Source: Octopus vulgaris (lineage: Eukaryota). Taken from it: 64,000 bases of DNA. Position numbers and translations under genes: made by a program. The stretch is from assembly GCA_951406725.2 (NCBI GenBank), contig OX597819.1, positions 63,984,001 to 64,048,000 of the forward strand, written 5' to 3'. Shown piece by piece: positions 41,816-64,000 of the stretch (its first letter is position 1; each line of letters starts with the position of its first letter). The notes beneath the pieces are model-generated. The model saw only the letters and a program-made list of their open reading frames with translations, was not told the origin of the DNA and ran no database searches.

Positions 41816-44264
41816 GAAGTAGTTTTTCGCAGTACTAGTAGAAATTCGTTTTAACAAATATTAATCTCGAGTAAACAAATAGGCTTAAAAACAATCAAAA
41901 AGAAAGAAGGCCAGATATAAAGAGTAAAATTAAAGAAAGCAATAGAAAACCGACCACGGAAGAAATAATTGAACGAATAGACAAAAGGAAATGATCATAA
42001 AATGATGTTTTACACAAACAAATAAATGCATTAATTAATTAAATTTATATAAAAAAAAAAAAGAATTAAGAATATCAGCCAAAGAAAAGAAAATACAACT
42101 ATACAAATATTAAAACAAGGGAAATAAACAAAAACGGAACAAACAAAATTAATTAAGAAGTGAGAATAAAAAAATCAATAAAGGCAAAATTAAATATAAA
42201 GTAAAATAAATTAAAAATGGTAAATCAATAATACAGAAATATACAGAAAGCTTATCCAGCCTCGGATAGCTATTGATTAGATTTTAAATTAATTAACAAA
42301 ATTTAACTTCTCAAATTTTGAGGTTATCATCGGGGTTGCTTTAATGAAACAAAATGTCGGTGAATATCTCACTATCTAATCTTTGGTGCACAGCTATGTT
42401 TTATGATATATATTCATGCGCATACGCATGGCTTTGTGGTTAACAATCTACATCTGTGAGTTAGTATATAAATGCATATACACACGTACTGATATACACA
42501 CAGATATCTATCAATCTATCTGGCTGTCTTTCTCTCCTTAGGGATCAGTATATGTATATGTATATATATATATACATATACAGATATATACACACACACA
42601 CACACGCACACATATATATATATATAATTATATACATTCATGCATATATACACACACCCCTATAAATCTACATATATATGCGCAGATGTATACATACATA
42701 TCCATATATATATATATATATATACATATATATATACATATATATATATACATAAATATATATGCATATATATATATATATATATATATGTGTATACTTA
42801 TTATATATGTATGTATGTATATATATATATATATATATATATATATATATATATATGTATATATATGTATGCATGTGTGTATGCTATATTCAGTGCAAAT
42901 CCCCCAAATTCAACTGGAGGATTGAGATCGATAGATGGAAATACAGGTGAGCAATCACCCCGTATGCCTATCCAGAAGTCACCAATATGAATTTGATATC
43001 GTCCCGTCTAGTAAGGGTTTAGGTATCCTAAATCAATAACGGATTATTAGCAATTATATGGCTACGAGTTTTACAGTCCATTGAGAAGTATTGTTTGTGT
43101 AATACTTGTTAAATTTTTACTGTTTATCGGTCGCCAGCCTTAGCTTTTTGATTGTATTTTTAACAGTCTCTTTGTAGCGGCTTTAATTTTAGGAAAAAGT
43201 ATATTACATGCTTACATGCACAAACACATATCTGTGTGAGTGAGTCAGTGTGTGTATCTGTGTGTATGGATATGTGTGTGTCTCTGTATGAACAAATACA
43301 GTGGCTAAGGAATATTCCTTGGTGACCGTATAATTCGTAGAGTGAGAAAAATATGAACTTTCGCCTCTCGGGAAATATCCTTCAACGTCAGATAGAAAAG
43401 CAAAACCCCACACCTTTCTACACTGTTGATCATAACCCTGACATTGATGCTTTCTACAGCTTGTCGATTGTCTCATTAGACTTACAAAAATTTATGCATT
43501 TACAATGTGTAAAACCGCTATAAGTATACCAACCAGACCTGATGAACCGCGCAACATAAACTTTGACTCCTCACCAACCGGAGTTATATCATTAGCTGAA
43601 AATAGGTACTGACTTTGTTAATATCTACTCTAATTCTGTACGCGAGCGTATGTGTTCAAAACCACGCGTGTATGTGTGCTTGTCTGTGTGTCCGTATGTT
43701 ACATCTGCTTTTTTAACTGTCTTTTTATATCTGATAATTGTTATGGATTTTCTATTAGAATGAAGCTGTATGACTAAATTTGCAATTTCTATATACGTAG
43801 AGTGAAAAGAAATCTTGCAAAACGGCGTTTAGTATAATGAGATACCTATTGAAATCACTTGAAGAGACACATCTAGACAGTGTGATTCAGCTAAACCGGA
43901 TGTCAGAATTTTCTTTGCGCAGGATCCATGTAAGATGGGTCGAAACCGTTGTAGTGATCCATAAAAATTCTAATATGATCCACATTTACGCCCCTCTCAT
44001 TAATGAAACTCCCAACAAAAAACTATGAAACTGAACGTGATTTATCTACAAATTACTCAGCATACACCATACGATTTATTAACTAGTAATAATAAAAATA
44101 AAAATAACAATAATAATAATAGAATAACAACAACAACAACAACAATAATAATAATAATAATAATAATAATAATAATAATAATAATAATAATAATAATAAT
44201 AATGATAATAATAATAATAATAATAATAATAATAATAATAATAATAATAATAATAATGATAAAG

Positions 44265-45690
44265 ATGAATCCCAAGTAAATCTCCTCGTTGATACGGTGA
44301 ATGCTGTCAGTGTTGATATCAGAATGGAGTTGGGACAGAAAAATTGCAGTGTGTTAGTCTTGAAGAGAGGTAAATTGAAATGTGTGAACGGGCTAGCGCT
44401 ACCATCGGAGGAGGCTACAAAGCAAACACAAGAAACGGGCTATGAGTATGGGAAATAGATAAATTGGTGTTATGTGAAATAGGTAAATTGATGGAGAAAA
44501 AATGATAGAAATATTTTAAGTGGTTTATTTGCGCAGATTAAGACTGATCATTAAGTCGAAATAATATAGACGGCATAAGATCAAGGTATCAAAACCTAGG
44601 CCATTTTAATCTTTATATATGGAGCAAGGGTAATCGCATGGACAGTAAACGAACTAAACAGCTCAGACAGAAAGACAAAGAAGTCGCTGACTGGATATGG
44701 GTCACTCCACCCAACACGTGACACAGACAGAGTGTATCTACCAACAAAAATATGAGGAATGGACTGAGTGGATGCGAACACAATATTAGAGCAAACGAAA
44801 TCAACATAGCATGGTATGTAAAAATGCTACAGAACCACTATTATTGGAAGTAAGAAGGTCAGCGGTGTGTAGGATGGAAAATTGCAATGATAAAGCACTG
44901 TACAAGCACTTGAGAATGAATGAAACTGAAAATAGGTGGATAAAGAAAAGAATGCCTGGGAAATGTCACATGACACCGAGGATAAGTCAGACAGAGAAAA
45001 AATGACTATGGATGACTAAAAGGGATTTAAAACCGGAAAACGAAGGCTCTAATCTGTGTACCCCAAGAGCAACCATTAAATACCCATTACATCAAATATA
45101 GACAACACATCAGAGAGTGATAAATGCAGAATTTGAGGACAAAAGGGTGAAACCACCGTAAGGCATATAACCTGTCTATATACGCCGATAGGCCAGAAAG
45201 AATATAAGAGACATCATGACAATATAGCAAAGATTGGCCATTGGACATTTTGCAACAAGTATAGACTTGACAGAGCAAACATGTGGTACGAATAAACCCG
45301 AAGGAATCATCGGAAATGATAAGGCAAAGATCTAATGGCATTTTATGATTCAGTGCGACACTGAGTTAGAGAATGGGAAGCCAGACATAGTGTTAACCGA
45401 GAAAGAAAGCAAAGGATGCTAGATGTGAGATATAGCATGCCCAGCTGTCAACAAGGTATGCGATAAAGAAGAAAGAATTTCGATAGATAGAACAAGTTCG
45501 CTTGGGAAGTTAAGCAGTTGTGGTCACTGAAAACGATGGCAGTACCGATAATTCTTGGAGCACCGGCAACAGTGAGTAAAAATCTTGAGAAGTACATGGA
45601 ACAAATAGGAGCTGCAATAAGGGTGGAGCAGTGGCAGGAAACAGAACTTCTCGGAACCGCTGGAAAACTCCTGAAGCTGTGCAAAGGCAA
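44265..45690 (+). mobile_element. R4/Dong non-LTR retrotransposon copy D0, 5'-truncated and degenerate
   Basis: Frameshifted DIRMELG..C, HPTRDTDRVYLP, C/APQEQ, CR.., KPDIVL, VPIILGAPATVSKNL, LLGTA; between (TAA)n tracts 44087-44260 and 45700-46071. Confidence 0.8.
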
Positions 45691-46071
45691 TGAAGAATAT
45701 TAATATTAATAATGATAATAATAATAATAATAATAATAATAATAATAATAATAATAATAATAATAATAATAATAATAATAATGATGATGACGATGATGAT
45801 GATGATGATGATGATGATGATGATGATGATAATGATAATGATGATAATAATAATAATAGTAATAATAATAATAATAATAATAATAATAAAAATGATAATG
45901 ATAATAATAATAATAATAATAATAATAATAATAATAATAATAATAATAATAATGATAATAATAATAATAATGATAATAATAATAATAATAATAATAATAA
46001 TAATAATAATAATAATAATAATAATAATAATAATAATAATAATAATAATAATAATAATAATAATAATAATA

Positions 46072-61788: not shown

Positions 61789-61880
61789 ATAATAATAACA
61801 ATAATAATAATAACAATAATAATAATAATAATAATAATAATAATAATAATAATAATAATAATAATAATAATAATAATAAT

Positions 61881-64000
61881 AAAAGAAAAGTTGAAGCAAG
61901 ATATCCTTGCCAAAGCACAAAGGATCCAACCCCAAAAAGTTCTACCAAGAACTTGGCAAAAATAAAAATAAAATAGAAATCACTACAGCACCAACGGCAG
62001 AAGAAGTGGAAGAATTCTGGAGAGAAATATGGTCGGCGAACGAACAACAAAAAAAAAGAAGTATCAAAACAACAAACTCAGCATCTGAGCAACTTTGGAC
62101 CCCCATAACAACTGAAGAGGTCACCCAGACACTGCAAAGACTAAGCAACTGGAAGGCACCTGGGCATGACAAGATCCCCAACTTCTGGTAGAAATATCTA
62201 ACAGGAATGCACAAAAAGCTGGCTGAAAACTTTAACAGCATGCTAGCAGAGCCAGAGACAATGTCTGAATGGCTCACGAAGGGGGAAAACCATTTTAATA
62301 CCCAAATCAAATGGGACAGCAAAACCAGAAAACTACAGACCAATAACCTGTCTCCCTACAATATACAAGGCACTTACTGCAGTGTTATCGCAAAGGTTCA
62401 ACAAGCACCTGGACGAAAACAACCTGTTTCCAGAAGAACAGAAAGGATGCCGCAAAGGCTCATATGGCTGTAAAGATCAACTAATGATTAATAAAGCCAT
62501 AACTGAAGACAGCCACAGAAAGAAGAAAGGCCTCAGTATGGCCTGGATCGATTGCAAAAACGCGTTTGATAGCATCCCCCCACACATGGATCCTCGAAAC
62601 ACTAGCTATTAACAAAGTATTACCAACCCTTATAAAATTCATAGGGCGCTCTATGAATAAATGGCAAACCGTGCTACAGCTCCAAACAAAAGAGGGACTC
62701 ATGAAAACCAAAGCAATCCCCATTAGAAGATGAATATTCCAGGGAGACACTCTCTCTCCACTCCTTTTCTGCTTGGCACTGTCACCTCTATCTGATATGC
62801 TAAATAGAACTGGATGCGGATATAAATGTTACGGCAAAATGATCAGCCACCTTTTATATATGGATGACCTAAAATTATACGCTGCAAATGACAAACAGCT
62901 GGAAACACTATTAAAGACAGTTCATGGATTTACCAAAGAAATAGATATGAAATTTGGATTAGAAAAATGCGCCAAAGTAACCATGAAAAGAGGAAAACTA
63001 GTTAAGAGTAACAACATCACACTAGATAAAACCAGTGAAATAAAAGAATTAGATCAAAGCCAAACTTACAAATAATTAGGAATACATGAACTAGATAAGA
63101 CACAACACACACAAATGAAAGAGAAAATTTTAAAAAATATTATAGACGAGTTAGATCAATACTAAAAACAGAGCTCAATGCTAAAAACAAGATAATAGGT
63201 ATTAACACTTTAGCTGTCCCAGTTATAAGTTACAGCTACAATATCCTTAACTGGACACTAAATGAACTGACCAAAATAGATAGGAAAACAAGAAAAATAA
63301 TGACAGGGTCTAGGATGCATCACCCAAAATCTGACATAGAAAGACTATATATACTACGTATAGAAGGTGGTAGAGGCCTTATACAGCTGGAAAACTACTA
63401 TAAAATAACCACCATAGGACTGCAAAAATATCTACTTCAGAAGGAAGGAAAACTGATACAAATAGCGGCAAAACACCAGCAAAACAAAAAAACTGTTCTC
63501 AGTATTTAAGGAAGCTGACAAATACAAACAAGAAATCATACCACCTAATAAATAAGAAGAAGAAGAAGAAGAAGAAGAAGAAGAAGAAGAAGAAGAAGAA
63601 GAAGAAGAAGAAGAAGAAGAAGAAGAAGAAGAAGAAAATGAAGAAACAACAAAGGCTATAAAACAAATGAAATCCAAACTAAAACAGAACAGCAACGAAC
63701 CATGATAAAACGATGGCAAGAAAAGCCCCTTCATGGTAAATACTGGACTAAACTAAACGCAAATGAAATAGACAAAGAAAAATCCCAGCAATGGTTGAGA
63801 AGCTCAGGACTCAAAGCAGAGACAGAGGGATTTTTAATTGCAGCACAAGACCAAAGCCTCCCCACCAGAAGTTACCAAAAACATGTAATGAAAAGAAATA
63901 TAACAAGTAACTGCAGAATATGTGGAGATGGACAAGAAACAATAAATCATATTATCTCTGGCTGCCCAATCCTAGCTAAGAAGGAATATATTCACAGACA
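61881..64000 (+). mobile_element. Dong/R4 copy D7, distinct subfamily, runs off the window end
   Basis: NWKAPGHDKIPNFW, NYRPITCL, EQKGCRKGSYGCKDQL, FQGDTLSPL, HLLYMDDLKLY, HHPKSDIERLY, WLRSSGLKAETEG, CRICG; frameshifts and stops. Confidence 0.92.
63555..63635. repeat. (GAA)n tract inside D7
   Basis: Directly visible. Confidence 0.95.

Follow-up and report, generated by a model that had tools for sequence, protein, structure and literature searches.

A dense same-strand stack of R4/Dong-type retrotransposons of several lineages among TAA tracts of the Octopus vulgaris genome

How do eight retrotransposon copies of clearly different lineages come to lie on one DNA strand within 20 kb? The question is raised by a stretch of 64,000 nucleotides (nt) of the Octopus vulgaris genome (GenBank assembly GCA_951406725.2, contig OX597819.1, forward-strand positions 63,984,001 to 64,048,000; hereafter the window, in whose numbering coordinates are given), where an earlier note, made from the letters alone, had proposed an array of at least eight R4/Dong retrotransposons spaced by (TAA)n at 44087..64000. 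Both the count and the common orientation were borne out: tblastn, with pieces of the open reading frame (ORF) of copy D1 and 120 outside homologs as queries, recovered eight distinct copies of the type without long terminal repeats (non-LTR) and with a restriction-like endonuclease (RLE), D0 to D7, all on the + strand in 44261-64000 and together covering 14,680 of 19,740 bp (74%) of the array. These R4/Dong-type copies likely arose by repeated, independent insertion into (TAA)n, with the strand of the run setting the direction of each and a run remaining on both of its sides as a target for the next.

The array comprises five blocks: D0, D1-D2, D3, D4-D5 and D6-D7. A (TAA)n tract (44087..44260, +) flanks D0 (44261..45695, +), a 5'-truncated, heavily decayed copy reaching from late reverse transcriptase (RT) to RLE, which groups with the divergent lineage of D3 in our trees and ends in a 377-bp TAA/GAT tail (45696..46072, +). 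In the D0/D1 spacer (46073..47178), degenerate GAT/GGT/TAA tracts accompany unclassified repeats that are multi-copy as judged from contig depth; the repeat directly after the D0 tail (46072-46711) has internal direct repeats of 50-126 nt, in a layout somewhat reminiscent of Penelope-type terminal repeats. D1 (47179..51114, +; 5' end approximate) is near full-length, a single ORF with three frameshifts and no stops that spans a helical N-terminal domain, RT, zinc knuckle and RLE, followed by a hairpin in the 3' untranslated region (UTR). A 66-bp TAA/TCA tract (51115..51180, +) joins it directly to D2 (51181..52020, +), a 5'-truncated copy with zinc knuckle, RLE and 3' UTR. The D2/D3 spacer (52021..54039) holds a short TAA tail, AT/AC microsatellites, unclassified DNA and a CTA/AAC/TAA tract, and precedes the 5'-truncated, heavily decayed D3 (54040..55999, +); the D3/D4 spacer (56000..56649) holds a TAA tail, unclassified DNA, a (TTA)28 tract of opposite sense at 56285-56395 and a GTA/GGT/GAT/TAA tract. 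D4 (56650..57461, +), again 5'-truncated with zinc knuckle, RLE and 3' UTR, abuts D5 (57560..60372, +), a decayed, internally deleted member of the D1/D6 lineage, across a 98-bp TAA-type tract (57462..57559, +). The D5/D6 spacer (60373..61022) has a GAT/AAC/TAA tail, a lone unclassified piece of 534 bp (60438-60971) with TAA runs at both edges, possibly another element inserted into the tract, and a TAA tract. D6 (61023..61787, +), short, 5'-truncated and of the D1 lineage, is joined by a 94-bp TAA tract (61788..61881, +) to D7 (61882..64000, +), a little-decayed, 5'-truncated copy of a separate lineage that is cut by the end of the window. Within these two copies, (GAA)22 at the start of D6 (61023-61088) and (GAA)27+ in D7 (63554-63645) have grown at glutamate codons and are microsatellites born inside dead copies.

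The class of these elements is best read from D1, in which a frame of 1,218 aa, the three frameshifts being marked X, reads through when set against a single-ORF homolog of 1,237 aa. Pfam RVT_1 matched, and the significant Protein Data Bank matches were R2 proteins only (E 3e-41 to 7e-23). D1 retains a knuckle of the form CxxC..H...C and a PD...D...K motif, which we take to be those of the zinc knuckle and the RLE and which are variously decayed in the other copies. All 25 aligned proteins carry zf-RVT, and none of the 25 matched an apurinic/apyrimidinic endonuclease (APE) family. R2 has N-terminal zinc fingers; in the first 470 aa of D1 no Pfam family matched at E<=0.05. The conserved N-terminal block of D1 is predicted as four helices (mean predicted local distance difference test score, pLDDT, 87.6). 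Foldseek returned nothing for this model at E<=0.001; structural matches of low score include Zeste (Z 5.4), the SANT domain of ISWI (Z 5.0-5.1), NgTRF (Z 4.7) and residues 147-215 of Bombyx R2 (Z 4.5), with a best Z of 6.7 that lies within the range of common helical arrangements.

A diverged Myb/SANT-like N-terminal domain has been described for R4/Dong (PMC7998251), and one of our homologs, P0094, comes from Pediculus humanus corporis, a species in the R4/Dong alignment of that paper, the accession itself not being matched. According to the same source, Dong targets (TAA)n in the majority of insects, molluscs and cnidarians. A TAA target is also given in PMC3812793, whose labelling of Dong as APE-type conflicts both with PMC7998251 and with the domains seen in D0-D7. 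The outside rows of our trees are unnamed or automatically named homologs, and the class assignment rests on domains and target: a single ORF with RT, knuckle and RLE, together with (TAA)n insertion, supports the R4/Dong-type identity that the earlier note had proposed.

Could the copies descend from one another on the spot, by local tandem or segmental duplication of a single element? Near-identical copies with shared breakpoints, which would speak for this, are not what the array holds: pairwise protein identity among D0-D7 is 21-73%, the closest pair share ~75% of nucleotides (the value for D5 against D1), and the 5' breakpoints differ. D1, D5 and D6 do form one group (support 99-100), as duplication of one element would have it, but even D5 and D6 differ from D1 at 33-44% of third codon positions, within a range of 33-69% for the array. 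A distant branch holds D0 and D3, whereas the outside homologs beside D2, D4 and D7 are different ones, with at least four to five changes of lineage label forced by the starred branches. A single clade for all eight was rejected (approximately unbiased test, p-AU 4e-83; cost 255 log-likelihood units under LG+G4 with 21 rows), in a test that used a quick tree, a smaller set and no mixture model, and in which D2, D4 and D6 fill less than 30% of columns and D0 is a long branch; 48 of the 120 homologs were aligned, and the fused or duplicated models P0006, P0048, P0056, P0065 and P0081 were left out of all trees. Since identity is so low and a single clade is rejected, the array is not a segmental duplication, and for the array as a whole that origin is refuted. 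An assembly artefact is countered by D2, which is matched by contigs of ordinary depth with 1-2 differences in all four sequencing runs and must therefore be a shared insertion. Duplication or artefact is, taken together, a most improbable explanation, and the several clearly different subfamilies that had been described stand.

The copies also differ greatly in their state of decay, from near-intact (D1) to heavily decayed (D0, D3), as the earlier note had them and as frameshift and stop counts confirm. D1 has its three frameshifts and no stops in 1,218 aa, against 10 frameshifts and 12 stops in 468 aa of D0, 8 and 14 in 624 aa of D3, and 13 and 10 in 832 aa of D5; D0 and D2-D7 are all 5'-truncated, with 2-23 lesions apiece. 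Changes at near-invariant residues give a rough clock, inflated for D0 and D3 by lineage distance, that runs from 4% in D1 (5/135) and 9% in D7 (10/116) through D2 (5/25) and D6 (3/14) to 29-38% in D3 (30/103), D5 (35/112), D4 (6/18) and D0 (26/68). Because the less decayed partner lies upstream in D1/D2 and downstream in D6/D7, both flanks of a copy seem to be reused, which suggests that either side can serve as a target.

The flanks of the copies are much alike. A perfect (TAA)3+ run on the element strand ends 0-26 nt from the 5' end of seven of the eight copies, the exception being D1, which has a degenerate GAT/GGT/TAA flank and its nearest perfect run 1,107 nt off; at the 3' side such a run starts 1-43 nt from all seven visible ends, that of D7 lying outside the window. 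Across the first 44 kb, by comparison, just 0.76% of positions follow such a run so closely. The description of copies that begin after and end before TAA-type tracts is thereby upheld, whereas that of copies spaced by (TAA)n holds in part: runs stand at nearly all ends, but a pure TAA-type tract fills only the three direct junctions out of seven. We considered counting the GAT, GTA and CTA tracts as decayed same-sense TAA and rejected this, since a single change separates each of these triplets from TAA and from TTA alike.

The protein of an RLE non-LTR element cuts a single strand at its target, and reverse transcription is primed from that nick; where the target is polar, the orientation of what is inserted is thereby fixed. 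This polarity is visible in related elements elsewhere, for which we took the best 80 of 454 confirmed in metagenome contigs, giving 70 loci after collapse at 97% identity. Among the 40 truncated relatives with 60 nt of flank, the 5' end has a TAA run in 22, a TTA run in one and neither in 17; of 28 complete 3' ends, 17 have TAA, one TTA, one both and nine neither, as against 7 TAA and 5 TTA runs in 1,781 background windows. Orientation is thus not random with respect to the TAA strand among these relatives (22:1 at the 5' and 17:1 at the 3' end), the strand-oriented target of the earlier note is supported there as it is by the flanks of the array, and the common strand of the array likely follows from this strand-specific targeting.

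The relatives also stack. Five of their 57 visible ends abut another copy, where ~0.12 would be expected from far-flank density, and 7 of 17 TAA tails directly precede a same-strand copy. A strict count gives 4 of 13, dropping L064, L078 and L030, which are seen only via a downstream seed, and L006, a 100% duplicate and possible assembly artefact. The single opposite-strand neighbour (L050) lies 9 kb away with a TAA run of its own. In L013, L015 and L020 the TAA runs are ~18-21 nt long, which makes joining by the assembly less likely, if still possible. Gene models of the beetle Callosobruchus analis and the butterfly Euphydryas editha likewise fuse two to three successive same-direction copies (P0006, P0048, P0065 and P0056, one of which alternates two subfamilies), seen as gene models without their DNA flanks. 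P0081, an in-frame internal duplication, was not counted as a stack.

These observations suggest how the array could have grown. An RLE copy entering (TAA)n would be oriented by the strand of the run, which it would split into two of the same sense; if slippage then kept both runs long, occupied sites would gain further copies, and a cluster of eight would represent the upper tail of the process. By a rough calculation, 0.5-15 chains of at least eight copies are expected at a reuse rate of 0.2-0.3 among 50,000-100,000 copies, which makes the array plausible as a tail of ordinary behaviour, and fewer than 0.01 at a rate of 0.1. The idea of a self-renewing landing pad is in this sense supported, as are the repeated use of flanking tracts and insertion in several waves; what did not hold up is that the locus should be special in mechanism, because direct stacking is frequent in relatives and the landing pad is therefore ordinary Dong behaviour.

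Several points weigh against this account. Four of the seven junctions hold 650-2,019 bp of other DNA, so that direct reuse is visible just three times, and an opposite-sense tract, the (TTA)28 between D3 and D4, lies inside the array. Eight independent copies on one strand would give p=0.008, but with each doublet counted once there are five blocks on one strand, p=0.0625, and growth from a single tract is therefore not demonstrated; the five blocks may go back to a single tract or to a number of same-sense tracts close to each other. The reuse rate is taken from other organisms, not octopus, and the control loci are short-read contigs of few families, not independent, in which a TAA run can join copies during assembly. 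No empty site was found either: none of the joints listed skips D1, a result that carries no weight, as repeats at both ends of D1 were skipped and 252 joints lie beyond those listed. Finally, a Poisson expectation of 0.07 for 20-kb intervals with at least eight copies, at a mean fragment of 1 kb, rises to 10-283 such intervals at fragments of 500-300 bp, though not with 14.7 kb of coverage; copy count is for this reason weaker evidence than coverage.

Coverage does set the locus apart. Dong-R4 elements are abundant and recently active in O. vulgaris, with 51 families, 92.7 Mb and 1,129 recent copies (PMC13282606); the 92.7 Mb correspond to 3.3% of the 2.8-Gb assembly, and relative to this published average the Dong density is ~22x in the array and ~7x in the whole window, so the array does not simply reflect the genome average. 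The same paper counts 288 hotspots of transposable elements (TEs), with 76-94 kb of TE per 100 kb, and the abundance of Dong-R4 and the TE hotspots of octopus are treated in PMC13282606 and PMC8967140. Such hotspots lend some colour to a passive pile-up, in which separate, pre-existing TAA tracts, or a low-recombination or heterochromatic zone that retains insertions, collected the copies, reuse was confined to the three doublets and the blocks share a strand by chance; the p of 0.0625 for five blocks and the D2/D3 spacer, 2 kb of ordinary microsatellite-rich DNA, agree with it. That reading shares the targeting step with repeated insertion and reuse, but it sits poorly with the first 44 kb of the window, where long TAA/TTA tracts (perfect runs of 70 and 34 units) are accompanied by only a faint Dong relic and a probable stub, and with the D0/D1 spacer, whose multi-copy repeats within trinucleotide tracts (summed contig depth 14,869-69,546 in run X1 over 46100-47094) are what later insertions into one tract should leave. 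We regard a pile-up as unlikely and continue to favour repeated insertion with reuse of the flanking runs. The cluster also lends itself to a simple genome-wide contrast, heavy-tailed as opposed to Poisson cluster sizes.

The uniform strand had also invited comparison with a uni-strand PIWI-interacting RNA (piRNA) cluster, a trap transcribed from the minus strand in which selection retains antisense Dong copies. In outline, the single strand, the many lineages and the 74% coverage do resemble clusters of the flamenco type. TAA polarity alone, however, predicts strand in unrelated contigs, so no trap is needed to explain orientation; the array has a single TE type with readable strand, Pfam having found no TE domain in one outside ORF and 15 frames taken from spacers, from the flank upstream and from other repeats; and the faint relic 25 kb upstream lies on the opposite strand. 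We consider such a trap very improbable. Equally slight is the chance of a variant in which the stack would be a self-assembled, Dong-specific piRNA source, target reuse and not host selection gathering co-oriented lineages that the host then transcribes in antisense, silencing its most active LINE (long interspersed element) group. More generally, as a polar target aligns copies without selection, orientation alone is no sign of a piRNA trap in same-strand TE arrays of molluscs.

Further features of the elements bear on how they move and how they may be found. D1, D2, D5 and D6 have a small 3' UTR hairpin (51045-51089, 51954-51997, 60311-60355 and 61723-61767) that they share with eight 3' ends from seven related loci; loci that carry it include L001, L005, L006, L013, L015, L031 and L037. 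In the alignment 82% of cells are paired, 6 of 8 pairs have two-sided changes, and the covariation score was reached by none of 500 shuffles, slid controls pairing at 22-43%; these figures lean high, the rows having been picked by motif and the structure drawn from the same rows. Of 14 additional, held-out loci, 9 were also matched by the model at E<=0.003 immediately behind the ORF on the element strand, most of them from families already in the training set. The hairpin is a candidate recognition signal for the RT, and a literature search, judged by title, found no paper on it. Its best held-out match in the window, at 20563-20608 (17.2 bits, E 0.07), lies in ~100 nt of + strand sequence between two long TAA tracts (20532-20634), which is probably a 3'-UTR-only Dong stub. 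An nhmmer profile built from four 3' ends missed this stub at 20.5 kb where the structure model found it weakly; the model can pick up stubs reduced to the 3' end, to which protein searches are blind.

Searches for an HDV-like (hepatitis delta virus-like) ribozyme at the 5' end were negative: Rfam gave no ribozyme match for 43.5-64 kb (E<=5) or for 12 related loci (E<=1), and a descriptor of our own, which may be too strict, gave none in D1 and none in eight relatives. The Rfam matches that did appear in 43.5-64 kb were AT-repeat noise under gathering scores and were set aside. One full-length relative, L013, has a tRNA-like sequence at its 5' end (84-167; 30.3 bits, above the gathering score), directly after an AAAT run, possibly an internal promoter or a fusion with a short interspersed element (SINE).

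Of 28 matches obtained with the N-terminal portion of D1, 20 are gene models of O. vulgaris (81-98% identity), and as these fall on 13 different contigs the family is dispersed. The summed contig depth over 46100-52040 in run X1, 219,000-941,000 for D1 and climbing toward the 3' end, fits a large, 5'-truncating family; single listed contigs have depths of 47-99, and contig depth is not copy number. At D1 sites 47454 and 47611 the letter of the window occurs in none of the contigs of the four runs, from which, as contigs drop rare variants, we draw nothing.

Upstream of the array, the first 44 kb are not quite free of Dong. Besides the probable 3' stub they contain a relic on the minus strand at ~18900-19450, a very decayed zinc-knuckle region with no TAA tract left (match at 19.1-19.4 kb; tblastn E 2e-7; 14.7 bits). 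At 20046-23647 lies an AT-rich element of 3.6 kb whose inverted ends of 111-148 nt are 89-92% complementary. A (TA)n tract adjoins it on the left and a second lies ~90 nt past the right end; with internal repeats of 330-880 nt and back-to-back TTA/TAC/TAA tracts, the element has the appearance of a DNA transposon sitting within a TA microsatellite. A decayed RT of another LINE group lies at 13722-15116 (+; Pfam RVT_1), presumably CR1-like to judge by its motifs. SINE-like layouts are seen in a 185-bp repeat in 2.6 tandem copies (27118-27600) and in dispersed copies of a ~450-bp repeat (28827-29234 and 40141-40592).

The array illustrates cleanly how retrotransposons can come to be clustered and aligned, without selection, by a target that has polarity and expands itself, and it orders the insertions of at least five Dong lineages at one site. 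Co-oriented stacks that arise through a polar repeat target, or through insertion beside earlier copies, have precedents in TRAS/SART, which target telomeric repeats, and in the nested clusters of Zepp; TRAS/SART are APE-type and telomeric, and Zepp inserts into itself. Close in kind are the Dong elements of the R4 clade (Bombyx Dong, DongAg, DongBg, Darwinula Dong and the Octopus Dong-R4 families), which likewise have a single ORF, RT, zinc knuckle and C-terminal RLE, no N-terminal zinc finger that we found, and a (TAA)n target. They differ in that the descriptions consulted give the target and not multi-lineage stacks. Our literature search found no such Dong stack in octopus, though the original Dong papers or Repbase could still describe tandem copies. 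Bombyx Dong also has a 5' HDV-like ribozyme (PMC3774820), of which our insensitive tests found none in D1. Utopia, an RLE element targeting U2 small nuclear RNA genes, is similarly target-specific, with occasional tandem insertion and arrays that include the target (PMC4640811), but what it targets is a gene for a structured RNA and not a microsatellite that expands itself. A further parallel is the SaTar/AgS-MULE arrays of guayule, rice, sorghum and citrus, which target microsatellites and are linear, mixed in family and non-nested, with ~30% of elements directly linked to another and a cluster of eight in sorghum (PMC5907723). SaTar elements belong to the DNA transposons and have inverted ends, most of them being short and non-autonomous, and the word 'orientation' is absent from that paper, whereas the octopus copies are autonomous-type retrotransposons stacked in one direction, likely because their TAA target has polarity. 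The octopus array thus represents stacking of a kind already known, though unusually dense, the same concept having been published for the SaTar arrays of plants (PMC5907723).

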